NCBI GenBank assembly: GCA_958009085.1
Contig: OY253669.1
Coordinates: 620,001 to 684,000 of the forward strand
DNA: 64,000 bases
Direction: 5' to 3'
From: Protoeuglena noctilucae
Taxonomy: Eukaryota
How positions within the stretch are numbered: position 1 is the first letter of the stretch; every line of letters starts with the position of its first letter. This document shows, piece by piece, positions 9,203-50,200 of the stretch. Under the pieces are notes generated by a model. The model ran no database searches and was not told the origin of the DNA. It was given only the letters and a program-made list of their open reading frames with translations. The translations under genes were made by a program, and so were the position numbers.

Positions 9203-11028
9203 TCACGGTCTCTTGGGCACGGGCATCGGCACACTATGGTCTGCGCACGCACCATGGACCCCACTCGTCCCGGCTCCACCCCCCTTGGATGTGCCCCCCC
9301 GGCGCTCCGGCCCCGCCCCCTGCTCCCACACCTCCCCCCCGTGCCCCTGCCCCTGTGTTTGCCCCTGTGCCTGCCCCTGCCCCTGCCCCTGCCCCTGCCC
9401 CTGCCCCGCCCCCTCGCCCGCCTTGATCCCCTCCGCCGGCGGCGCCTTGAGCACTGACTCGTGCAGCCGGAAGCCAAACACCCGGGGCACGTACTTCTCC
9501 TGCGCGCAAGGCTAGAGTCGCAGGGGCTAAGCCACACGGCGCGTCGCCGCAAAAGGCGGCGCATGCGCCACCGGCAAGCGTCGCACCATCGGGGGTGGCG
9601 GGCGGAGCGAGGGGTAGGTCATGAGGAAGAGGTGGGGGAACGTGGTGCCAAAGTAGGCGCCGTCGACCGACCCCTGGAATCGAGATCGCGGGTAGAACAG
9701 GTCCTGGCACTTGGGGCAGTAGAGCTTCACTGCGGGGAGGGCCGACGCGAGGGCGTGGGTGAGGCACGGAGTCGGCGCAGGTCCCGCGGCATGGCGCCCT
9801 ACCCGGCGCCGAGCCCTGCGCCCAGTCACCCGTGGACGTGTGCGGGATGTCGCTCTGCCCAACCGGCAGGCATGGCTGGCCCCCACAGAGCACCCGGGGG
9901 CACCGTCCAAACTGCACCGCCTTGTACTTCTCCAGCATACACGCCAGGCCCCGCGTGGTGAGGACGAAGCGCGCATGGATGAGGCCGTAGAGCATCTCCG
10001 CCGCAGTCTCAATGATCTGCGGGGACCGACGGCGCGTTGAATGCCAAAAGGCTTTCCAGGGGCGTGAATGCAAGGCAGCCCAGCATGCCCCGTCTCCCTC
10101 GCCTCGTGCTGCTCGTCGGTCAGGGAGTCCGCGTGCTGGGACTCCAAATCCAGGATCGTGTCCAGCGCGTAGTCATAGTACGGGACCATCATGGAGAGGC
10201 CTGACAGGTTGAAGTCGTCCTGAAAAGGAGGAACAGAGGCAGGATGTTTCGTCACCTGCCGCCTCAGCGGCCTCGGACCCGCGCGACACGCGCGACACGG
10301 CCGTTACCTGGATGTAGTCATCGTCCACCTCGCAGAACAGCTCGTTCCCCTTCAAAGAGCAGAACCACTGGATCCAGGACACGTCCCCTGCGTGGGAGGC
10401 CCAGGGAACCACGCGCTTGAAGCGCGGAGAAAGATCAGAGGCCACACAGCGAGTCGCTGTCCGTCGGGGTCCTGGCGCCAGCCAAGGCGCTTGCGGGGCG
10501 CGGGTGGCAGGGCCGAAAAGCTCGTCCTGAAACTCGCCGCGCTGGTCTGCCCCCACAGCGCCCCGGCAGGGGAACTCCGTGAAGGCACGGAATGAAAGAG
10601 TCCCAGCGCAGTCCAGGAACGGCGCGCTGCCTGCCCACGCGACGGGAAATGGTCGAGAGGCCCCGCCGATCGTGCAGCTCTCGAAGCGATGGCACGGAGA
10701 GTTATGAGGCGGGATGCGCGGGGCAGAGTGACTGACAGGAACGACGGCTCCGCTAGAGCGGTGCCCATCGATCGCTGCCCGGGCCAGGAGCAAAGCACAG
10801 GCCCATGCCGCCCCGTGCTGTTTGCAACGGAGCTCCCACGGCCAAATCGATAGAGGGGGAGCGCATGCAGCTGCCAGATACAGCTGCAGCGGGCGCTGTC
10901 GCCCCGAAACGTGGGCGCAAGCAGCGTCTGCGGCCTGGGAGGACACCTTCGGACCCCGAGTCGCCCTCCGACCCCTCGCTTCCCGACTCCTCGGAAATGT
11001 CTTCTGACCATGCATCTTTGTCGCCCAT
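9203..11028 (-). CDS. CKB: Casein kinase II regulatory (beta) subunit
   Basis: [48 protein letters not shown], zinc motif FGRCPRVLC...[24 protein letters not shown] and [11 protein letters not shown]. Acidic first exon [19 protein letters not shown]. Confidence 0.95.
9340..9412 (-). repeat. Coding hexanucleotide microsatellite, (CCCCTG)n on +, encoding a Gly-Gln tract in the CK2 beta tail
   Basis: Tandem gcccct/cccctg units translate on the minus strand as [19 protein letters not shown]. Confidence 0.85.
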
Positions 11029-11675: not shown

Positions 11676-13162
11676 ATGCTGGATCCCGACACGAGTGAGC
11701 AGTGCAGCTGCTCGCTGGCCGTCGCGTGCTGTGGTCTCTGGTTCAACAACCTGCCTTCATCCCGCAGGCACCCGAGCTTCGACTCGGTCCTGAGCCATGC
11801 AGCTGATGCCGTCGTCATCCCCGCCGGACCGAACTACAACTATCTGCAGCGCAACCTCGCCCTCGAGCTGGTTCGGTGAGCCGGCACGTTGCAGCATGCG
11901 CCTCCTGGGCTCCTGTCTGTGCGCGTATCTGCCATCCGTCGCCGCCACTCCCCGCAGTGTCACGGAGGCCGCTGCTCTTGGCGCTGGATGGTGGGTCGGC
12001 AAGGGCGACAAGAACGGAGCGGATCGAGCTGCGGTGGACAACATGAGGAAAACCCTGCGGGGTGTCTCAATGGATGGGACGGTGGTGATTGGGGAGGGCG
12101 AGAAAGACCAGGCGCCGATGCTCTACAGGCGCGAGGGCGCAAGCGGCTAGTTGTTTTGTGGGCAGAGCGTTCCCGTGTGCGTGCCATGCCAGCTCTCGCC
12201 CGCCGTGCGCAGGGGCGAGCACGTGGGCGACGGCGCCGCGCATTCCCCGATGGTGGACGTCGCCCTCGATCCGATCGACGGCACCATGCTCGTGGCCAAG
12301 GGGGGTGACGGGGCCATCGCCGTCATCGCCGTCGCCGAGCGGGGAGCCCTCTTCGACCCAGGTCCCGCCTTCTACATGGAGAAGCTGGCCGTGGGCCCGC
12401 AGGTGCCCCCCTCGTCCGTGTCGGTCGACTACCCCGTGGTGCGCAACCTGCGGGCGGTGGCCGACGCCTTGCACAAGCCGGTTGAGGAGGTTACGGTGGT
12501 GGTGCTCGACCGGCCCCGGCACGAGGGGCTCATCCAGGAGGTGAGGGCGGCGCGCGACAACGAGAGCGGTCGAGGTTGGAATGGCTCGCTTCCGGCGAGT
12601 TAGTATGCCAAGGCGCCCTGTGCTCCAGATCCGCCGCGCCGGGGCGCGCATCAAGCTCATTTCGGACGGCGACGTGGCGGCTGCCATCGAAGTGGCCAAG
12701 CCGCTCAGCCCCGTCGACGTGCTCATGGGCGTGGGGGGCACGCCTGAGGGCGTGGTGGCGGCCTGCGCCCTCAAGTGCATGGGAGGGCACATCGAGGGGC
12801 GCCTGTGGCCGCGGTCGGAGGACGAGCGCCGGGCGTGGGAGGAGCAGGGCTTTGACCTGGGCAACATCATGGGCACGACCGACCTGTGCCGCGGCGAGCG
12901 CGTCTTCTTCGCCGCCACGGGGATCACCGGTGAGGATGCTGTGGGGGAGCCACGGGGTGGAGACCTGCTGTTTCCACTGAGGTGCGCGAGAGCCACTCCC
13001 CTTCCCCGCGCAGATGGCGACCTGGTGGAGGGGGTGCGCTATTTGTCGGGAGGCGCCATCACGCACTCCGTTGTCATGCGCTCCGAGTCGGGCACGGTGC
13101 GCTGGATTGAGACCCACCACCGGTGGGGGGCGCGCAAGAGTGCGCAGGGAGTGTCTGCTTGA
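11676..13162 (+). CDS. glpX: Class II fructose-1,6-bisphosphatase (GlpX family)
   Basis: [91 protein letters not shown] and [16 protein letters not shown]. Five introns. Stop TGA at 13160-13162. The start MLDPDT is inferred from splice phase. Confidence 0.93.
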
Positions 13163-17234: not shown

Positions 17235-17922
17235 CGGGGTCGCCCCGCCCCCGCCCAGTTGGATGCTGCCGTTGACCCGCAGACGTCGGGACTCCGCGGG
17301 GATGCACGGTGCCTGGGGCGGAGAGAAAAAGGGCTTCTTTAAAACGTCGCACCGGTGAGATGTCAATGGGCATTGCGGATTTGCATTTTCTGCCGTTCAT
17401 GTGCCCGCACTTCGGAACCCATGTGCGCTGCGGTGCGTGGGAAACTCAGGCTGCTGCCACGCCATACTGCGATACGAAATACTATCTATATTGCGGCAGC
17501 GCACCGCGGCGATATAGAGCGCCTGCAGCAATGTTAAGGTGGCAGTTGCAGCCGCTCACCAGGCGCGATGAGGACGAACCTGCTGGTCCAGCTCGACCCC
17601 TGGAAATGGCGAATGTCGACACTCGTGGCCGAGGAGGCCTCGTTTGACGCGCCGGCGCAGCGTCAGAAAGCAGGTGGGATCTGGCAGCTTCGACTCCCTC
17701 GCCCATGGAGCCTTGGCTGCGGGCCCTTTCGAAGGCTTTCCAATCGCAGACACCCCAGCTGCGCGAATGTATCAAAACAAACGCTTCTGCTAAGCCCCAA
17801 GCGCTGCGCCACCCTTTTCGCGCAATTCCTTTCCAACCCCTGCCCGCCGCAATCTCAGCAGCTCCGTGGTGGTGAACGTCGCGCGTCTCCCATCGGGACC
17901 CCATCGAGGACCCGATGCGGGG

Positions 17923-18929
17923 ATGTTTGCTGCCGGATGTGCCCCCGCCTCCTCCCTCGCCGGCGCCTGCCCGCTGCTGCATCGCCGCCGGTGCTTAGCG
18001 ACCAGGAGTGTCTGGGTGACGGCCCAGGTGAGGGCCTGCATGGTCAGAATAGTGCCCAGCGCGGCTCTGCACCCGGCGCGGACCGCTCGCGGACCGCTCG
18101 GGCCCCTCTGGAGCGCGCAGGGGAGGCCACCTGCGGCCAGGGACGTGGCGCGCAACCGGAGGGCCAGGTTCGACTACGAAATCCTGGAAACGATTGAGGT
18201 GCCAGTCGCCGCGCTGCTCAGGACGGTCCCATGAACCACAGGGGCCCTTTTTCACTAATGCAGGCGCTGAATCCGCCGCTGGGTCGCGTCCTGTGTCGCG
18301 CAGTGCGGCGTGGTGCTCACGGGGCCCGAGGTCAAGTCGGCGCGGGCGGGCAAGGCGTCGTTGGCCCAGTCCTTCTGCCGCGTCGAGGGGGGGGAGCTGT
18401 GGATGCGGGGGTCCAACATATCTGAGAACCCGCTCGCGTCGGCGTTCGATCAGTACGACCCCAAGCGTCAGAGGAAGCTGCTGGCTAGCAAGGTGACGGT
18501 CGCTGATGCGATGCTCTAGCGGACCCTCCCGGGCCTGTTGTTGTGGCATAGTCCCCCCATGCAGGGCATAGGGAATGCCATCTGACATCGTGAGGCCGTC
18601 GTGGTGCGCAGAGGGAGATCCTCAAGCTCTCAGATAGGCAGGACAGGGAGGGGCTGACGCTCGTGCCACTGCGCATGTACTTCAAGGAGAACAGGTGTGA
18701 GGAATGAGCTGGTTGCGAGCCGCCCGCACCGCTGATGTGTGTCTTGCCACGGCACACATGCAGGGCGTGGGAAGGGCGACGGTGACGCCCCGCCCTGCCC
18801 CATGCCCGCAGGTGGTGCAAGGTCGAGGTGGCTGTGGCGCGGGGGAAGAAGGCTTACGACAAGCGAGAGACCATCAAACGTCGGGAGCAGGAGCGTGGCA
18901 TCAGGAAGATAATCAAAAGCTTTCTGTGA
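17923..18929 (+). CDS. smpB: SsrA-binding protein SmpB with an N-terminal organellar targeting extension
   Basis: VARNRRARFDYEILETIE|CGVVLTGPEVKSAR, GELW, YDPKRQRKLLASK|REILKL, GLTLVPLRMYF and CKVEVAVARGKKAYDKRETIKRREQER. Four GT-AG introns. Ala/Arg/Ser-rich N-terminus MFAAGCAPASSLAGACPLLHRRRCLATRS. Confidence 0.95.
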
Positions 18930-19160
18930 TTGGCACGCGTGGGCACTGGCGCAGCCATGCAGCCAGGCCAAGTCAGCAGCGCCCTTCGCATAGCGCCTGC
19001 AACGTGAAAGAGTTGAGGACGGTGTGGCACTAGCAGCCAGCTCCTGGAGACCTGCGGAGTCCGCTGGTTGGCACCAGGCACCGGGGCCGCAGCTGCTGCC
19101 GGGCGCAGAGGGCGCAGCTGCCGGCGTAGGGGGCCAGCGGCAGAAGGAGGCGTGCCGTTG

Positions 19161-22100
19161 ATGGACACGCCGGAGATCGGGGCCGCGCCGGCCGCGGAAA
19201 CGACCGCGGCGGGGGACCTCGGCGACGGGGCACAGCATGCAGCGATGGGGCGCGATCGCCCGCGGGACGCCGTTGATCCCAGCAAGACGGGGTTTCTTGG
19301 GACCCTGGGTCAGTTCGTCTGGGGAGCGGATCGCGCTGAGGACGGCGGGGAGCCACATCAAGGTGCCTGGGGCGAGCGCCCAAAGCGTCTCCCGCGCGCG
19401 TCGAGGCGGGGCCCAGGATAGCGCTTCCTACCCCTCGCGACATCGCCGCAGAAATCGTCGAGGTGCCGCGGGGATCGGACGTCGTGGTGCGCATCACGCT
19501 GGCGCTGATCGGCGTTCTCGCCTTTGCGGTCCGCGTGTTCAGCGTCGTGAAGTACGAGTCTGTCATCCACGAATTTGATCCATACTTCAACTATCGCGTC
19601 GTGCTGTACATCAAGGAGCACGGCATCCGCGAGTTCCTCAACTGGTGAAGAGTGCGACGCTCGCACTCGCACTGCAGCTGCTGCCCCCCTAGCGGACCCT
19701 TGCGGTGGCTGGAACCGTCGCCGTGACGGCACGCGCAGGTTTGACGACCGCACGTGGTACCCGCTCGGCCGCGTGGTGGGCAGCACCACGTACGCGGGCC
19801 TCATCTACACGGCTCTGCTGGCCTGGGGCGCCCTCCAGGCGCTCCACCTCGACGTCGATCTCCGGGAGGTGTGCGTCTACATCGGCCCGGTCTTCGCCGT
19901 CCTCGCCGCCTGGGCCACCTACGCCATGGTGTGCGAGGCACGGCCGGGCGTGCAGGGCGTGCGGGCGGGGCTGGTCGCAGCCATGGCGCTGGCCCTCTCG
20001 CCTGCGTACGTGTCCCGGAGTGCGGCCGGGGCCTTCGATCTTGAGGCTGGTGAGCGCCGCCCTGCCGCGCACGACGAGGGGGCTCTGGAAAGGGGGAGGG
20101 AGCATGGCAGCAGCTGCTGCTTTTTTGGGGGGCATGAGACTCACGACCACTCCCGGTTGGCTGCAGTGGCAATCTTCGCCATCATGTGCACCTTCTGGCT
20201 ATATCTCAAGACCATCAACACGGGGCGTCTCAGCTGGGCCGTGGCCTGCTGCCTGTCTTTTTGGTACCTGGCTGGCAGCTGGGGGGGCTACACGTACGTC
20301 ATCAACCTCATTCCCCTGGCGAGTCCCAAGTTGGCTGCTTAGACACTTGTTCGTTTCTTTCCAGAGCGTGGGCCGCAAGCCAGGCACCACCGCCAGCGTC
20401 GCGCCCCCTACATACCCCCCGCAGCATGTGGTTGCGTGCGTGCTGACGGGACGGTTCACGGCGCGCCTCTACGTCGCCTTCGCGCCTCTCGTTGCCCTGG
20501 GGACGATCATGGCTGCGACAGGTGAGTCCGATGGGCCATGTGCACAGACTCTGCAGCGCCACAGGCGGGAGTCACACGACAGGCCCGTAGGGTCGGTGGT
20601 GGATTGCGCCACCGGGTGATTCGCCATGTCGCCGCCCCCGTCCTCACCGCCGCTTCCCGCGTTCTCCCACTCAGTCCCGCCCATCAAACAGAACGCCGTG
20701 ACTGCTTCCGAGCACCTGCTGTCCTTCTTCGCCCTCGCGCTGCTCCACTTTGCCATGCTGGCGCAGTACCTGAAGCGCCTCATCCCGGCCAGCACCTACC
20801 GACGGGCCAAGGTGGGCGGAGTGAGGGGGTCCCTGATCTGCTGTGCATCAGCCCATCCCCCTCAGACTCGCACAGCCCCCCTGGCCCCTCTTCCCGCCCA
20901 CAGGCCGTCTTCCTGGTGTCCTGCGTGGTGCTCGCGGCCCTCGCTGGCTTTGGCGTGGCCCTCAAGATGTCCACCAGCGCCACCCTGGGATGGACCGGCC
21001 GCTCCCTGTCCCTGCTGGACCCCACTTACGCCGCCAAGCACATGCCACTGATCGCGAGCGTGTCGGAGCACCAGGCGAGCTGTTTGGTGACCTCACTCCC
21101 TGCCCGCCCTCCATCCATGCCGCCCCTGACCTCTACCTGCCGTCCCTGCAGCCGCCGGCCTGGCCCAACTTCATGATGGACGTGGGGCCCTTCATGCTGC
21201 TGGCCCCGGCTGGCATCGTCCTGTGCCTCGCGCCCCTCACCTACGGCACCCTCTTCCTCCTCCTCTTCGGCAGCAGCAGCATGTGGTTCACTGGTGCGTG
21301 ACGGCCCATGCGCTCCAGGGCCTCACGACCCACCGCTCCCTTCCCCGACTCGCGCTCCCCCGCGGCCCGCAGGCGTCATGATCCGGCTAATGCTGCTGTT
21401 GGCGCCGTCCGCCGCCGCGCTGGGCGGGCTCGGGGCGTCCTGGGTGATTGACGTGGGTGCCACGTCCCTGCGTGCCTGGTGGGCCCGGGACATGCTAGGG
21501 GATGGGGCCGACGCCGAGGGTGCACGGGAGGAGGCGCAGAAGGGACAGGTGAGGGGTTACGCGGCCATGGCGGGGGCGGCATGCACGTGGCTGGCCCCCG
21601 TGCGACTGACGTGTGTTCGGCCGCCCCCTGCGCAGGCAGGGCAGGGCGCCTGGGACGGCGGCGTGGACTCGGAGGGGGACCGGGCGTGGCTGGAGCACCA
21701 GGGGATCGCCGTGTCGGAGGGCGCCGAGGCGGGGCTGGCCCGGCTGCGGAGCTTCCGCCTGTCGGTGGACGATGACTCGGGCGACGACGCAGCACCGCAG
21801 GCAGAGGGGGGGGCAGAGGGGGCGGGGGGGACGCGAAGGGCCTCGGCCGAGGGCGGGAATGGCGTGGGTGCGCCGGGGAGGGCGGGACAGGAGGCTCGGA
21901 GGGCATTTGCGGAACGCAAGGCGAGTTGGCGCCGTTGCATGCGGTTGCTGGGAGAGTGGAAGGGAGCGCACTCAGTGGTGCTAGGCGCGTGTGGGATTAG
22001 GTGGCACTCCCTTCCTATCTCCGCCACGCTGCTGCTGCTGTGGCAGCCTCCCTCGCGACGCTGCCGTTACTCTGTCGTTACTCTGTTGTTACTCTGTCGC

Positions 22101-23709: not shown

Positions 23710-26700
23710 TCACGGGGCAGTCAGATTAGAAGGCGGAGGAGTCGGAGTCGCCGGCGCTGGGCTGCCACCCGTTGCAGGGGTGGCCGCGGTCGTGGGCCCG
23801 GGCGTCGGGGCTGCAGGAGTAGCGCCCGTCGTGGGTCCGGGCGTCGGGGCAGCTGGGGTGGCCGCGGTGGTGGGCCCAGGCGTCGGGGCTGCAGGAGTAG
23901 CGGCCGTCGTGGGTCCGGGCGTCGGCGCTGCCGGGGTGGACGCCGTCGTGGGTCCGGGCGTCGGGGCAGCTGGGGTGGACGCCGTGGTGGGCCCGGGCGT
24001 CGGGGCAGCCGGGGTGGACGCCGTCGTGGGTCCGGGCGTCGGGGCAGCTGGGGTGGACGCCGTCGTGGGCCCAGGCGTCGGGGCTGCAGGAGCAGCGGCC
24101 GTCGTGGGTCCGGGCGTCGGGGCAGCTGGGGTGGACGCCGTCGTGGGCCCAGGCGTCGGGGCTGCAGGAGTAGCGGCCGTCGTGGGTCCGGGCGTCGGGG
24201 CAGCCGGGGTGGCCGCGGTGGTGGGCCCAGGCGTCGGGGTTGCAGGAGTAGCGGCCGTCGTGGGTCCAGGCGTCGGGGCAGCTGGGGTGGACGCCGTCGT
24301 GGGCCCGGGCGTCGGCGCAGCCGGGGTGGACGCCGTCGTGGGTCCGGGCGTCGGGGCAGCTGGGGTGGACGCCGTCGTGGGCCCAGGCGTCGGGGCTGCA
24401 GGAGTAGCGGCCGTCGTGGGTCCAGGCGTCGGGGCAGCTGGGGTGGACGCCGTGGTGGGCCCGGGCGTCGGGGCAGCCGGGGTGGACGCCGTCGTGGGTC
24501 CAGGCGTCGGGGCAGCTGGGGTGGCCGCGGTGGTGGGCCCGGGCGTCGGCGCAGCCGGGGTGGACGCCGTCGTGGGTCCGGGCGTCGGGGCAGCTGGGGT
24601 GGCCGCGGTGGTGGGCCCAGGCGTCGGGGCTGCAGGAGTAGCGCCCGTCGTGGGTCCGGGCGTCGGGGCAGCTGGGGTGGCCGCGGTGGTGGGCCCAGGC
24701 GTCGGGGCTGCAGGAGTAGCGGCCGTCGTGGGTCCGGGCGTCGGCGCTGCCGGGGTGGACGCCGTCGTGGGTCCGGGCGTCGGGGCAGCTGGGGTGGCCG
24801 CGGTCGTGGGTCCGGGCGTCGGGGCTGCCGGGGTGGACGCCGTCGTGGGTCCGGGCGTCGGGGCAGCAGGAGTGGCGGCCGTCGTGGGTCCGGGCATCGG
24901 CGCTGCCGGGGTGGACGCCGTCGTGGGTCCGGGCGTCGGGGCAGCTGGGGTGGCCGCGTTCGTGGGCCCGGGCGTCGGCGCAGCTGGGGTGGACGCCGTC
25001 GTGGGCCCGGGCGTCGGGGCAGCTGGGGTGGACGCCGTGGTGGGCCCAGGCGTCGGCGCTGCCGGGGTGGACGCCGTCGTGGGTCCGGGCGTCGGGGCAG
25101 CTGGGGTGGACGCCGTCGTGGGCCCAGGCGTCGGGGCAGCCGGGGTGGACGCCGTCGTGGGTCCGGGCGTCGGGGCAGCTGGGGTGGACGCGGTGGTGGG
25201 CCCAGGCGTCGGGGCTGCAGGAGTAGCGGCCGTCGTGGGTCCGGGCGTCGGCGCTGCTGGGGTGGACGCCGTCGTGGGTCCGGGCGTCGGGGCAGCTGGG
25301 GTGGCCGCGGTCGTGGGTCCGGGCGTCGGGGCTGCCGGGGTGGACGCCGTCGTGGGCCCAGGCGTCGGGGCTGCAGGAGTAGCGGCCGTCGTGGGTCCAG
25401 GCGTTGGGGCAGCTGGGGTGGACGCCGTCGTGGGTCCGGGCGTCGGGGCAGCTGGGGTGGACGCCGTCGTGGGCCCGGGCGTCGGGGCAGCCGGGGTGGA
25501 CGCCGTCGTGGGTCCAGGCGTCGGGGCTGCAGGAGTAGCGGCCGTCGTGGGTCCAGGCGTCGGCGCTGCAGGAGCAGCGGCTGTCGTGGGGGTGGGGGCG
25601 CCCGGGGCAGCGGGGCCAGCAGGCGTGCTAGGTGTTGAAGAAGGGGTGGGGTTGGATCCCGACGGAGGGTCTGCAAGCGATGTGTCACGGCTCAGGTGTT
25701 CAGGCCAGTGGTTATGCCACTGGCATTCCCACGGCTACAAACCGATGTGCAGAAGTCTCACCTGCGTTGATCTGCCCGGTGCTTGAAGCTGGTGTGCCGG
25801 ACGTGGGAGTGCTGGCGGTGGAGGCTGGAGTGCTTCCGGTGCCGCTCGACCCTGTGCTGCTCCCACTGGCACCATCAGTGCCGGTGTTGGTCTGGCCATC
25901 GCCCCCGGTCCCCGTCGACCCGCTGCTCCCACCGTCGCTGCTTCCTCCGGGCAGCAGCGTCGAGAGATCCTTCACAGCGTACGTCACGACGTCGCCCCCA
26001 AACACCTTGCTCACGGACGGCCCGTACTCGCGGATTTTGGAGCACGTCTTCCCGATGTACGTCATGGGCGGCTTGAGGGGCTTGACTGCGAGGGAGGCAG
26101 ATATGGCTGTGCTTTCCCTCTCCTCATGGCCGCAATGGCATGTGCACCTGCTGAGCCTTCCCCACCCTCACCGCAATAGGCCGGGGTCTTGACGAGGACC
26201 AGCTTCGCCGGGGTGCACACGACGTCCTTGGTCGTTCCCGAGGGCCCTTGCACCTCCACCACGTCGCAAGACACGGGCGTCAGTTGGATCTCGAACGATG
26301 CGCCGACGCTGCGGGGGACGGCGCCAGCGCGGCCCTCGCCCTGGTTGCTGAGTGCTGTCTGAGTGCCCGGACAGTCGCCCGCACTCACCAGTACGGCAGC
26401 ACCAGCCCCTGGTAGTAGTCGGCCACGACCTTGCCGCAGTTGGACGTGCACTGGCTGCCGAGCACGTCGCCCAGCGTGATGACACGGTCAGGGGGAGGGA
26501 GCTCATGGGTGTTCTGCACGCCGACGAGGTTGCCTGCGAGAGGGGAGGGGCGGGTGCAGGTCGGGAGGGGCAGGGGCTTGCAGATGCATGACAGTGTAGG
26601 TGTGGTCGCGCGTTCGGGAGGCCATGATGTGCTACATTATGGCAACAAAGGACGGACATTACGCGAGACGGGCAGCTTGTGCTGTGCGTATGACTCACCG

Positions 26701-33111: not shown

Positions 33112-36100
33112 ATGGCCCACTCGGCGAGCCCGGATCTCCCCACGGCTTTGGCAGAGTCGCTGGACGAGCTCGCTGCATTGGTGCACCGTCTGCTGATCCG
33201 CAGTCCCGAGGCTTTCTGGAGCGAACAGACCGTCGAGGTCGGCGCGTCGCTTGGGAGGTTCACACCGCGCGCCTGCCGAGCCTTCTTCGCACAATGGGGC
33301 AGCTTCTTCCCACCTTCTCCGCGCAGGAGGCTCTGGAGAAACTCCCTCACATAAACGCGGAAGGGTTTCGCCGCACCGGCCTCGCGCGCGCGATCCTGGG
33401 CCGCATCATCGACACCAGCGCGGTGCAGTGGGACCACCTCCCGCAGCACCTCGTACCCACGACGAAGGGAGCTGTTGTGGTGGAAGATGCGAACCTGCTG
33501 CAGCTCCTAGGGGAGCTTTCGAGTGCAGCGAAGACCGCGGCGGGTGAGAGGGGGGCCGATGCCACGCGTCACGTTGCTCTGTACCCATTTCGGCGCATGC
33601 AGAGATGACCTGCTCGGTGACGCTGCGTCGCACGTATGTCCGCAGCCGAGGACGTAGCATCACACCTGGAGGGGGCGATTCGGGCAGTGGCCGCGTCCGT
33701 CACCGGGCGGGATGCCCGCCATGTACCGGAAAAGGCGCCGCCATACGCACTGGGCGAGGACAGGGCGACCGATGCGTCCGCGGTGCAGGGGCAGGCAGAC
33801 GTGTGGAGGGCCGACAGGGCGTCGGACGCATCCAGCAACGTCGATTTCCGGTGGGCGCGTGCCTTTGTGCTGCTCGCAGGCAGGCTCGGCTGGACCCCAT
33901 GCCCGCTTTGGCGTGTGTCCTTGTCTTAAGCTAGACAGGGCGGATCTCTTGCTCGCAGAGACCCCGTGGCCGACCACGTCTCAGCGCTTGAGGCGCTGCT
34001 GTCGGGCCCCAACACGGCAGAGTCCCAGAGTGCGCAGCTCAAGGTCCTGTCCGAGCTGGCGCTCCTTGCACCGCCGGGCACGGCGCTCGTGGACGCCCTC
34101 TGCGAAGGGCCTGAGTGGGGCAGGTGTGTGAGGGACTATGCGTCCCTGTGACTGATGCATCAACATACCATTGTGTCTGTTCACATTGCACGTTTAGCTC
34201 TCGCGTCCATCCATGTGCGGGCGTGGTGTCACCCTCTTCCCTGACCTTGCTTCCTTGCCCCAGGCTGTGCCCGCTCCTGGCCCGCTGCGTGGCGCTGACG
34301 GATGCCGACGTGAGCACCCTGGCATGGCAGCTCCTGGGTCTCCTGTCCCTCGGACCTGGGGGCCTCGTCCTCGAAGACGCCCCGCACGTCATCGACCTCC
34401 TGGCAGCCGTGGCAGAGGCGCTCTCCGCCGCTCCTGGCGAGCCTTCCGACACGAGCCGGGGTGCCGGTGGGGCCGGCCCGGCCACGCCGTCGAGCGCTGC
34501 GGTGCGGCAGGCGCCGCGCGGCGACAGGGACGCCCGCCCGGGCACCCAGGGGGGCGAGGGGGAAGCTCCGGCGTCGTCGAGCCACGAAGGCCCCGGCCTC
34601 CCCGCGGCGCTGCTTCACGCGTGGCTGTCGGCGCTCCCGCGGCAGTGGCCCCTTCTGGACGGCGCCATGCAGGGCCGCGTGTGCCGGGCCGTCGCGGGGG
34701 CCCTCGCTGGGCACGCCACCGGGAAGCGCACGCTCCTGTCCGCCCTCGCTGCCACCCACCCTGACATGCCCTGGCTCCATCGTCTATCCGCCACTCCCTC
34801 CATCGCCGCGACTCTCTTCCGCGCGTTTCTCGCCTCCGGTCTGCTTTCCGCCTGCGCCGCGGCCGCCCTGGGCACCGACCGCGTCGTCCCGGGCCCCGGC
34901 CCTGGCCTGCCACCCACGCAGCCCTCCGCAGCTGACGGGGCGGCCGCAGTGCCTCCCGCGTCGGACCTCCCGCAAGACCCGGGCCCCTCTGCTCACGTCA
35001 TCGCTGCAGCCCTGTCGTGCCCTGCCGGCTTGCGCGCCCTGGCCGCCTGCGTCCCGCACCTCCGCGAGGTCTCTTGCCGCCCTCCAGTTGCTGCGGCGGA
35101 TGATGATGGTCAATCCCCCGCAAACGCGGCGCTCCAGGGAAAGGCGGCAGGGGCCAACGGCGGCGCGGGTGTCAAGCTCGCACCCGACGATGCGCGGCCT
35201 CTGCCAGACGCAGCGGTTCTGGCGTTGTGTCGGGGAGCGTTCCCAGAGGGCATCCCCGACCCCCTGACTCCGCACTGGCTCGCGGCGCTGGCGCACCTGT
35301 CCCCCGTCCTGCGCCTGTGCGCGCCCGGCACTGTGGCCCGTGCCACGGCTGCGGTGCTGGAACCGATCGGGACGCAGGCACGCGAGGCGCTCCTCTCGCC
35401 CGCATGCAAGGGGCCTGGGCAGCTCGATTCGCAGCGGGGCGAGTCGCGCCATGCCGCACGTGGGTTGGGCCGGGGCGGGGAGTTGTGGCCGTCGGGGGTC
35501 GCAGGGTCAACGGGGGCGGAGGGCGCGTGGCTGACGCGCCAAGTGGTGGGGCGGGCGGCGCAGATGCTTCGGCGGTGGTGCGAGTCCGGCTGGCTGGAGC
35601 TGCCGTTTGCTGCCCCCGGATCGTCGTGGCTTCGGGCGGAGGCGTGGCAGGGTGACAACGACGACGGGAGGCACCTGGGGGGGGACAGGGGTGGATGGGG
35701 GGACGCGACCGAAGGACCCCAGCCTGAGGCGGGCGAGACATCGGGCCAGGTGGGACAGAAACGGTCGCAGGGGAATGCGACGTCTGCGGTGGGAGGGCAC
35801 GCTGCAGCACAAGGCGTGGCGCAGGCGGAGGACAGCCCGGACGGCGTGGATGCCGTGGCCCGCGCCCCGCTCTGTCCCCGGGAGGCGATGCAGGGGGTGG
35901 TCCTGGCAGGGCTGTCCGAGGCCATGAGTCTCTGGGCCGACCCATCCAAGGCCGGGCGGGTCCCGGAGCTGCCGCAGTTCCTGACCGCCGCCGTGGAGAT
36001 CTGCGACGTCTGCGCAGGCAAGGGCAGCTGCGTTGCATGCGTGGGGTTATCGGAAACCAGGGCCGGGGTATCGCACTCGGCTGTTCTCTTCCATCAACCC

Positions 36101-47277: not shown

Positions 47278-50200
47278 ATGCGCCTCAGCGACTTTGTGTC
47301 GCTGAAAGACCTCAGCGATGGCAACAATGACTGGTGTGCGCGACGATGGCGGACTCGGAGACGCGCAAGAGACCATGATCGCTTGCGCACTGCAACGGCC
47401 CGCATGCATAACGTGTGCGTGCCACTTTCGCGCAGGTACAACGTGCCCGCGCCGCTCCGACGCGTTCTGGAGCTTCTCATCAAGCGAAGCATGGCTCAGG
47501 TGCGCGCTGCAGGCTCGCAGTGCGCGCTAAAAGCACACACGTTGGTTTGTTTCACTTGCCTGTGAAACCCTGCAACCCGCAGGAAGACGATGCGGCTCTC
47601 GCAAAGGCACACATGGCCCGCCAGGGCGAGATATTGGAGGCCCTGGGTTCCAGGATCGGCGCCCTCAGGCGCCTCCACGAGGAGCACGTGGCCCAGGCAG
47701 CCGAGGTGCTGGTCTACCTGCGCCCTACGCTCCCAATGATGCCCAGCTATCGTTCGCAAGCAAGAGATGGCTGATGGCTTTCCTGATGTCTCTTTTCTCA
47801 CGCCGCAGTCGCACCAGGCCCTTTCGAAAAAGGTGAACGTGGCGTCGGATAGGCACGCGGCGGGGCTGCGGGAGGTGGAGGCCAAGGTGGCGGGCGTGGA
47901 GGCGAAGCTCGCGGCATCTGAGGAGCGCCTCCAGAGCGCAGTCGACGGAGTGGAGCAGGAGGTGACTGGCGGTGATGGCGCGACGGACGGCTGCGAGCGA
48001 GAGCAGTGCCGTGACCGAAGGCAGCCCACCGGTCGAAGCACAGGTCAGGAGGGCCGAGAAGGCGCACGCGGCGGCCGTGGCGGCCGCGGAGCAGCGGGTC
48101 CATGCGTCCGTGGCAGCGGCGAAGATGGAGGCCGAGGACCGTGCCGCAGCCGTGGCGGAGGCGGCCGAGAGGTGGCGCCTGGAGTCCGACGCCTCGGTGG
48201 CCCAGCGCCTGAAAGGCGTCGAGGAGGCGGCCGAATCGCGGTCGGCGGCGCTCGAGGCGGAGCTTGCGAGGCGCGTGGCCGACGTGGCCCGTCGCGCCGA
48301 CGCGGAGGCGGCCCGGGTGGAGGCGGAGGGCGCGCGGAGGGTGGCGGCGCTGGAGGGGCGCGTGGCGGCCGCGGAGGAGGCGACGGACAAGCGCCTGCGG
48401 GACCTGGGGTCGCACGTGCGCGGGCGGCTGCGGGAGCTCGAGGCGGCTGCCGGGGCGCTGGCGTCTGCCGTGGAGCAGCTGGAGGGGAGCCTCGCGGAGG
48501 CGCACGCCCACGCCAGCCGGCGCGCGGACGACCTGGAGGGCGAGGTGGCGGAGGTGAGCGCGGCGTGCCGGGTGGCCCTCGCGCGGGTGGAGGAGTCGCT
48601 GTCGGCGGTGCGGGCCGAGTCCCAGGCGGCTGTGACGGCGGCCACGGAGGCGTCAGCCGCTCAGCTGCGGGGCGAGCTGGCCGGGGCGAAGAGGGAAGTC
48701 CTGGAGCGGGCGGCGGAGATGGGCGCCGACGTCCGAGCAGGTGCGGGGGCCATGTGCGCCACAAGCGCAGTGGCTCGCATGGGGCGCGTGTCGTCACGCG
48801 TGCTTGCATGATCAGCGCTTGCGACCGCGCCTCCGTGGTGCCCGCAGCCGCCAGCAAGCAGTCGGCCGCTGTCAAGGACGACCTGGCGGCGCTGCAGGCG
48901 GAGGTGGCGAAGGCCGCGTCCTCCATCGCCGCCACCGCGCCCGTGGCAGCTGTGGCGCGCGACCAGGTCCGAGAGCTGAGGGCCACCGTGGAGAGCCTGG
49001 GGGGGGACTTGCAGGAGCAGTCTTCATCGATCGCTGCGCTGTCCAAGCGCACGGAGCGCGTGCTTTCCGAGGCGAAGGAGGACCTGGCGCAGGCGACGGC
49101 GCAGGCGCGGCACGTGGCGGACGAGGGCACGCGTGCGGTGGAGGCGTTCCGAAAAGAGTCGGGGCAGGAGGTGGCGGCGGTGGTGGCCGAGTCGCGTGCA
49201 GCTGTGCAGACGGCCAAGAGGGAGATGGAAGAGAGGGGGCAGGCCATGGAGGTGCGCGGGCTGACATACTGACGTGTGTGGGCGTGGGATGGGGAAGCCG
49301 ATGGTGTGACGGCGCCCGTCTTTGTGAGTGGTTGCTCGCAGGAGCGCACGTCGCAGCAGCTGTCCGGCATCAAGCGCGACGTGGACGCGGCGGCGGAGGC
49401 GGTGCGCCGGGAGGTGACGTCCTCGATCGAGCGGCACGGGAGCGACCTGCGCTCGGAAATGCGGACGGCCCAGGCGTCCCTGCGCGAGACCGTGACGGCG
49501 AGCGCAGACGCAAAAGTCCAGGCGAGATGGGGTTTGTTTGCACGAAAGAGGCGGACCGTGTGGGCTGCCTGCGATGCTGAGATCGGCGCTTGTGCAGGGC
49601 CGGTGGAGCGAGTTGGAGCGGCGGGTGGAGGGGATGGCGGGGCAGTGCGCGCGGGAGGCGCAGCAGGCGGCTCTGGACAAGATCAACGCGCGGGTGGAGG
49701 AGATCGTGAGCAACTGGCAGGGCGTCAACCTGTCTGTCTACAAGGGGCAGGTGAGGAGCGACGAGCGAGCCAGCCGGGGAGGACCGCGACCGTGTGCACC
49801 TGCTGGGTTGTTGCTGCGGATGTGATTTGAGACACCAACTTGTTGCGCAGATCCGGCGAGAGATGGAGAAGCTGCACGCGGCACTGCAGCTCGAGACAGA
49901 CAAGCGCGTGAAGGCGGCGGAGGGAGGGTGGAGGAGCTGCGGGAGGAGTTTGCCAAGAAAGGCGAGGGGCAGGGCGCGGGGCATGAGCGAGAGTGCGGTA
50001 AAGTGGGCAAAGCAGGCGCTTTCCTGAACAGCAGCGCTGCTGGCGTGTTGCTGACGATGAATTGGGTCTGGTCCGCAGTGGGCGGCGTGGGCGGCGTGCC
50101 TGGCTCCAAGGGCCTTTCCGAGGTCATCTGGAAGATGCGTGAGGTGGAGGGCAAGGTGGCCACCGAGGTGCGACGGGTCTACGACGACCTGGGGTCGCGG

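Follow-up and report, generated by a model that had tools for sequence, protein, structure and literature searches.

We find that a 64-kb stretch of DNA, the whole of which was analysed and is called the window below, carries a nuclear gene for SmpB that is intact, expressed and spliced. Trans-translation is nearly universal in bacteria and survives in only some organelles. We consider it probable that the gene encodes an organelle-directed SmpB, most likely of the plastid, which would partner a tmRNA encoded in that organelle. Finding a smpB in the nucleus points to a lineage in which an organelle probably keeps bacterial-type rescue of stalled ribosomes; the present case adds an apparently unannotated marine gene to the map of organellar trans-translation and gives a reason to seek an overlooked ssrA in the plastome of the same organism. 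The picture of how trans-translation works is unchanged by it.

Results

Gene model and spliced transcripts

We read the stretch from 17400 to 19500 directly, with all frames translated and the exon boundaries then adjusted to GT..AG. The result is a gene at 17923-18929 on the plus strand with five exons and four GT-AG introns (Table 1), whose 573-nt coding sequence specifies a SmpB of 190 amino acids. The start codon at 17923 is the earliest in-frame ATG past a stop ending at 17793, and the frame is unbroken over 190 codons with a GC3 of 0.84. The original prediction, made from the letters alone, had described four spliceosomal introns and a first exon of about 35 aa; exon 1 is exactly 35 aa, and the introns bear out the description at the level of RNA.

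Table 1. Features of the SmpB gene, its transcript and its neighbours in the window
Feature	Position	Strand	Content	Evidence
Casein kinase II beta	9237-10303	-		Pfam
glpX-type (class II, bacterial) fructose-1,6-bisphosphatase	11794-13159	+	three frames: profile 9-68, 62-175 and 169-273 of 307	Pfam
SmpB mRNA, minimum extent	17743-19020	+	contigs cannot show true ends	X2 contig
Upstream ATG 1	17767-17793	+	8-codon ORF in SmpB 5' leader	sequence; inside RNA contig
Upstream ATG 2	17915-17998	+	27-codon ORF, out of frame, 8 nt before SmpB start, overlaps coding start	sequence; inside RNA contig
SmpB coding exon 1	17923-18027	+	35 aa without SmpB similarity; bulk of N-terminal leader	Pfam, RNA contigs
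SmpB intron 1	18028-18120	+	93 nt, GT..AG	gene model, RNA contigs
SmpB coding exon 2	18121-18198	+	leader end (GRPPAARDV) and SmpB profile 1-18	Pfam, RNA contigs
SmpB intron 2	18199-18303	+	105 nt, GT..AG	gene model, RNA contigs
SmpB coding exon 3	18304-18492	+	SmpB profile 19-80, with central loop	Pfam, RNA contigs
SmpB intron 3	18493-18611	+	119 nt, GT..AG	gene model, RNA contigs
SmpB coding exon 4	18612-18694	+	SmpB profile 81-107	Pfam, RNA contigs
SmpB intron 4	18695-18811	+	117 nt, GT..AG; sits behind codon base 2	gene model, RNA contigs
SmpB coding exon 5	18812-18929	+	SmpB profile 108-142: last strand and basic C-terminal tail, GKK..DKR	Pfam, RNA contigs
SmpB stop TGA	18927-18929	+	in exon 5	
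STT3	from ~19340	+	directly 3' of SmpB	Pfam
Polyprenyl synthetase, HAD hydrolase, queuine tRNA-ribosyltransferase (TGT)	in window			Pfam
PhzF, cyclase domain, ABC ATPase, PLP decarboxylase	in window			Pfam

A search of public sequencing runs found 12 runs, 8 of which contain the SmpB stretch. Four of these eight come from one organism ('organism A') and hold all sampled words of the stretch; the other four are marine metatranscriptomes from one single study and hold 52-60% of the sampled words, which matches the expectation for an mRNA without introns. We aligned three RNA runs (X1, X2 and X3) and one DNA run (X5) to 17500-19400. Two of the three RNA runs each give a single contig in which all four joints are present (X2, 844 nt, 17743-19020; X3, 828 nt, 17756-19017), and these contigs omit exactly 93, 105, 119 and 117 nt at the predicted introns, with 0 mismatches. 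The DNA run covers the region in one piece with 0 splice joints. Because the joints are found in RNA and are absent from DNA, the spliced form is RNA, and every base of the gene model is thereby confirmed. The gene is thus transcribed and correctly spliced in natural seawater communities.

The third RNA run, X1, holds an unspliced piece (17691-18326) that spans intron 1, together with a 3' piece, and has no spliced joints; the unspliced piece is either pre-mRNA or carried-over DNA. The RNA evidence as a whole comes from one study, and its contigs do not give expression level, strand or true ends. The X1 piece and the reliance on one study weigh somewhat against our reading, as do the two upstream ATGs inside the RNA contig (Table 1), which may restrain translation of SmpB.

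We do not take the RNA contig ends at about 19017-19032 as the 3' end of the mRNA, since a short repeat lies at the same place and occurs in DNA contigs as well. Further contigs of the RNA and DNA runs carry the segments 19032-19049 and 19209-19228 in the opposite orientation; these segments look like a small dispersed repeat, which probably breaks assemblies near 19032-19228. A TGTAA poly(A) signal was not found within 18930-19600.

The introns themselves allow two further observations. The length of intron 1 is a multiple of three and the intron has no in-frame stop, so that its retention would lengthen the leader by 31 aa and leave SmpB otherwise unchanged. No further copies of the four introns, as introner-like repeated introns would leave, are found in the window beyond chance matches of 12-33 nt.

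Conservation of the protein

In a Pfam scan of the five exon peptides, four match SmpB (PF01668) and exon 1 matches nothing. Exons 2 to 5 lie on the profile abutting and collinear, together running from position 1 to 142 of 143 (Table 1). Their scores are 16.7, 60.5, 22.9 and 37.8 bits in exon order; exons 3 and 5 each pass the 27-bit cut-off alone. Judged by the profile, a collinear match over four exons is far beyond chance. The expectation of a complete SmpB with its basic C-terminal tail was therefore correct, the tail KKAYDKRETIKRRE being encoded in exon 5.

Comparison with E. coli SmpB leads to the same picture at the level of single residues. Exon 3 aligns ungapped to residues 20-79 (E 8.8e-9), and exon 5 aligns ungapped to residues 112-146 (E 5.4e-6), with GKK and DKR identical. 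Since exon 3 aligns ungapped, the central loop, which is missing from SmpB of some reduced bacteria in the cases treated in PMC4131195, is not deleted here. Across the 23 invariant columns of a 10-sequence SmpB alignment, the window protein retains 21, the exceptions being L to M and H to S, and D168, K169 and R170 fall in retained columns. On this comparison the predicted protein bears no sign of decay. The C-terminal tail and the central loop of SmpB both act in tmRNA-dependent steps. Set beside bacterial SmpB (E. coli and T. thermophilus, seen in ribosome-tmRNA structures such as PDB 7acj and 4v8q), to whose E. coli chain exons 3 and 5 align without gaps, the window gene differs in its 44-aa leader, its four spliceosomal introns, its eukaryotic chromosomal setting and the lack of an adjacent ssrA within the 64-kb window.

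The N-terminal leader

The window protein has 46 residues ahead of the conserved N of the N-R-R-A motif, where the bacterial rows listed have roughly 6-27. Its first 44 residues, the leader, hold 10 A, 6 R and a single D or E, for a net charge of +5. The helical hydrophobic moment reaches at most 0.27 over 18-residue windows, none of which is strongly amphipathic, and on a reading of the sequence the leader lacks a clear hydrophobic signal-peptide core such as would be expected for plastids behind extra membranes. This composition fits a transit peptide or a presequence; by a heuristic comparison it may suit a primary-plastid transit peptide somewhat better than a mitochondrial presequence.

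Relatives and phylogeny

An exhaustive HMMER search with exon 3 returned 1692 proteins at E <=1e-3. The 69-aa protein P0003 is identical to exon 3 with read-through into intron 3 and comes from prokaryote-style gene calling of this very DNA. The next-best match is a 177-aa protein at 66% identity, and no full-length annotated product of the window gene is among the matches listed for this query. A word-indexed protein search with exon 3 gave 2 matches among 21 candidates, both of them bacterial-looking SmpBs. A profile search gave 5732 proteins at E <=1e-10 among 8000 scored; the best 120 of the 5732 are listed, and the five named cyanobacterial SmpBs of our comparison were taken from this search.

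The closest relatives of the spliced window SmpB are environmental sequences with N-terminal extensions of their own: P0166 at 67% identity, P0153 at 61% and P0155 at 56%. Identity to the five cyanobacterial SmpBs is 43-51%, no higher than to a SmpB from Planctomycetota (P0169, 55%) or from an alphaproteobacterium (Rhodoplanes, P0236, 49%), a result that tells against a plastid reading. A genome-contig scan for bacterial SmpBs (600 pattern matches examined) gave 80 loci with 0 from cyanobacteria, a count that is uninformative on kinship; the Atlas look-alikes of P0004, generic bacterial SmpB clusters, are uninformative too. A metagenome-contig scan with P0153, the closest full-length relative, gave 80 loci, none of them closely related and the best at 53% identity.

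For the phylogeny, a first FastTree of 124 rows was reduced to 65 rows and 160 columns for IQ-TREE under LG+C20 PMSF. Most of the 59 rows left out are near-duplicates that carry no label or extra loci from phyla that other rows cover, and the plastid and mitochondrial SmpBs named in the published tree (PMC12574857, S5 Fig) are not among the 65. The window SmpB falls inside a clade of 10 N-terminally extended sequences with support 96/86. Cyanobacteria (100/99) and alphaproteobacteria (100/96) form clades separate from it, and the nodes that join the three have support of 35/75. Forcing a union with cyanobacteria makes the tree 12.7 log-likelihood units worse (AU p 0.328), and forcing one with alphaproteobacteria makes it 20.8 units worse (AU p 0.182); neither union is rejected. 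A SmpB tree had been proposed with the original prediction as a way to tell a cyanobacterial from a proteobacterial origin. What the tree delivers is the clade of extended SmpBs, and neither of the two origins is resolved by it: SmpB is too short, with present sampling, for the tree to decide.

How should this clade be read? One tentative idea, which we regard as unlikely, is that the window SmpB and its nine extended relatives make up a eukaryotic lineage apart from the plastid SmpBs of cyanobacterial derivation, stemming either from an independent bacterial acquisition or from a marine green-lineage group with unrecognised plastid trans-translation. If true, the marine green-lineage case would mean a plastome with an unannotated ssrA, or a SmpB that acts without ssrA.

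Neighbouring genes

The GC content of the window is 64-77% throughout. Pfam matches were obtained for 15 of 127 stop-to-stop frames of at least 190 aa (E <=1e-5) and for 11 of 70 shorter frames (E <=1e-3). The shorter frames were picked by GC3 from 480, of which 73 passed and three, overlapping SmpB or the first STT3 exon, were removed. The families found (Table 1) are spread across several frames per gene, as for intron-split genes, and with STT3 and casein kinase II beta as neighbours the eukaryotic nuclear setting is secure. Neither ARAGORN nor an Rfam gathering scan detects a tRNA, a tmRNA or any further RNA family within the 64-kb window, the absence of ssrA being expected for nuclear DNA, and no photosynthesis genes are found in the window.

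STT3 offers a hint of lineage. A search with its exon at 19740-20054 returns its own ORF call (99%), one other protein (76%) and land-plant STT3A (47-54%), which accounts for all organism-named rows. Sequence similarity therefore leans weakly to the green lineage, Viridiplantae; the lean is weak because land plants are favoured both by the database searched and by its word filter. GC contents given in two prasinophyte genome papers point to no taxon. The organism, marine by the RNA runs that contain the gene, may be an alga.

SmpB and STT3 are packed very tightly, head to tail. In the interval 19019-19452 (plus strand) the STT3 RNA contigs begin within about 10 nt of the ends of the SmpB RNA contigs. 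They depart from the window sequence at 19362 and continue with letters near 19451, which suggests that the 5' part of STT3 holds an intron.

Discussion

Nuclear, organelle-targeted SmpB is already known in red-lineage algae, oomycetes and, since 2025, green algae, and the window gene is probably a further case. The background given with the original prediction, in which the SmpB/tmRNA system persists in some plastids and a few mitochondria, agrees with what PMC4131195 and bioRxiv 10.1101/2025.09.02.673837 say on the matter in the portions available. The first description of a plastid-targeted SmpB encoded in the nucleus dates from 2005 (Jacob et al., cited by PMC12574857 and 10.1101/2025.09.02.673837), and complementation of an E. 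coli smpB deletion was reportedly tested there with a diatom protein. In 2014 Hudson et al. listed 16 smpB genes in eukaryotic projects, of which 4 are bacterial, 3 are oomycete and mitochondrion-targeted and 9 are algal and plastid-targeted; the nine belong to red-lineage or secondary algae except for one oddly labelled entry, and the general pattern is an RNA gene in the organelle with a protein gene in the nucleus (PMC4131195).

For green algae the record is thinner, and the 2025 paper PMC12574857 is the only literature on their SmpB that we found. According to Turmel et al., plastid ssrA is present in Mesostigma and, in each case next to rbcL, in three pedinophytes, two Nephroselmis and Picocystis; it did not turn up in trebouxiophytes (PMC4524492). 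In pedinophytes plastid ssrA co-occurs with nuclear SmpB, and in the S5 tree of the same paper the plastidial SmpBs of Mesostigma, Tetraselmis and pedinophytes adjoin cyanobacteria, with mitochondrial ones among alphaproteobacteria (PMC12574857). In a 2025 preprint tmRNA is still said to appear absent from the plastids of green algae (10.1101/2025.09.02.673837); knowledge of the green cases is thus not widespread. The plastome paper on Tetraselmis and Scherffelia contains 0 mentions of ssrA or tmRNA, which makes annotation gaps likely.

Against this background we propose the following course of events. The five-exon mRNA would be spliced and then translated in the cytosol to a 190-aa precursor, and the basic leader, some 44 aa long and rich in alanine, would take this precursor into an organelle, most likely the plastid. 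The mature SmpB, of about 146 aa, would bind the tRNA-like domain of a tmRNA encoded by the organellar ssrA and carry it to ribosomes stalled on broken mRNAs. There its C-terminal tail would fill the empty mRNA channel, and translation would switch to the tag reading frame. Here we infer import, the target organelle, the partner tmRNA and the rescue activity.

Several lines of evidence point this way. The profile match is complete and collinear over exons 2-5, the joints occur in RNA and not in DNA, the frame, the invariant columns, the tail and the loop are retained, and the protein is extended by a basic leader almost without acidic residues, as its nearest relatives, members of the same clade, are extended too. 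In every case described in the available parts of PMC4131195 and PMC12574857 (S5 Fig), moreover, a nuclear SmpB accompanies an organelle ssrA. For the plastid in particular, the STT3 neighbour leans, weakly, toward a lineage in which plastid ssrA is known (PMC4524492). The window gene resembles the plastid-targeted algal SmpBs (Thalassiosira, Cyanidioschyzon and seven others in PMC4131195; Mesostigma, Tetraselmis and pedinophytes in PMC12574857, S5 Fig) in being nuclear, extended and complete in its tail, and by analogy a plastid ssrA partner may likewise be expected. It differs from them in that its nearest relatives are environmental, the named algal proteins standing outside our tree, and in that its clade is not recovered beside cyanobacteria in the maximum-likelihood tree, unlike the plastid SmpBs of the published tree, though that union is not rejected. 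A further point against our reading is that ssrA is missing from most green algal plastomes surveyed (PMC4524492), so that lineage alone cannot imply its presence.

A mitochondrial destination, where SmpB would partner a two-piece or reduced tmRNA of that organelle in the manner of jakobids, oomycetes and a few further protists, strikes us as quite improbable. Mitochondrion-targeted nuclear SmpBs are certainly known (PMC4131195; in PMC12574857, S5 Fig, from Andalucia, oomycetes, Palpitomonas, Vannella and Ancoracysta). Those of oomycetes and jakobids resemble the window protein in joining a leader to the SmpB domain, in having introns in the nuclear gene and in relying on an RNA partner encoded in the organelle, the last of which we infer for the window SmpB (PMC4131195; PMC12574857, S5 Fig). 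A basic leader with almost no acidic residues would suit either organelle; the AU test leaves the alphaproteobacterial union standing, and for the closest full-length relative the Atlas look-alikes fall in clusters that mostly bear the label Pseudomonadota, which is a lead only. The known mitochondrial proteins, however, branch among alphaproteobacteria in the published tree and the window clade does not: our free tree separates it from the well-supported alphaproteobacterial clade, and that union costs more log-likelihood than the cyanobacterial one. The leader also lacks the strongly amphipathic window, and no mitochondrial tmRNA is reported, in the portions of the literature at hand, from the green lineage toward which STT3 leans.

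It would be more surprising still if the organellar ssrA had been lost and SmpB retained for a tmRNA-independent role, which we rate as very unlikely. In a few bacteria one partner is present without the other, and Hudson et al. suggest that independent function is commoner than has been appreciated (PMC4131195). Tetraselmis has a SmpB in the published tree (PMC12574857, S5), and the chlorodendrophycean plastome paper is silent on ssrA and tmRNA; nuclear SmpBs without an organellar ssrA may therefore exist, or the partner ssrA may be unannotated. The window protein nevertheless retains in full the GKK..DKR tail and the central loop, co-occurrence of ssrA and SmpB held wherever it was checked in pedinophytes (PMC12574857), and a small plastome ssrA is often missed, such that Turmel et al. 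needed a dedicated search (PMC4524492).

That we are dealing with contaminating bacterial DNA, a pseudogene or a recently transferred gene that is not translated, as could be suspected from the mere fragment P0003 that public gene callers gave, has next to no probability: the spliced RNA contigs rule it out, barring chimeric assemblies, the four introns being exactly excised, the 190-codon frame intact, the GC3 in keeping with the GC of the window and the flanks occupied by intron-split eukaryotic genes (among them STT3 immediately 3', casein kinase II beta and TGT), and the earlier view of a real nuclear gene free of contamination is thus upheld.

Other features of the window

Like SmpB, the glpX-type fructose bisphosphatase (Table 1) is of bacterial type and yet carries introns within this nuclear stretch. 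GC content is raised at 34001-36000 (0.73) and at 48001-50000 (0.72, with a skew of 0.25); long frames are open there on both strands, with no Pfam match. Finally, some 46 copies of a 39-bp unit (83% matches) lie at 23777-25563, where GC reaches 77% and the GC skew is strong. Each of the six frames is open across this array, and one minus-strand frame has a GC3 of 1.00; conceptually translated, that frame would encode a 13-residue repeat rich in P, T and A, like that of a cell-wall or mucin-type glycoprotein.
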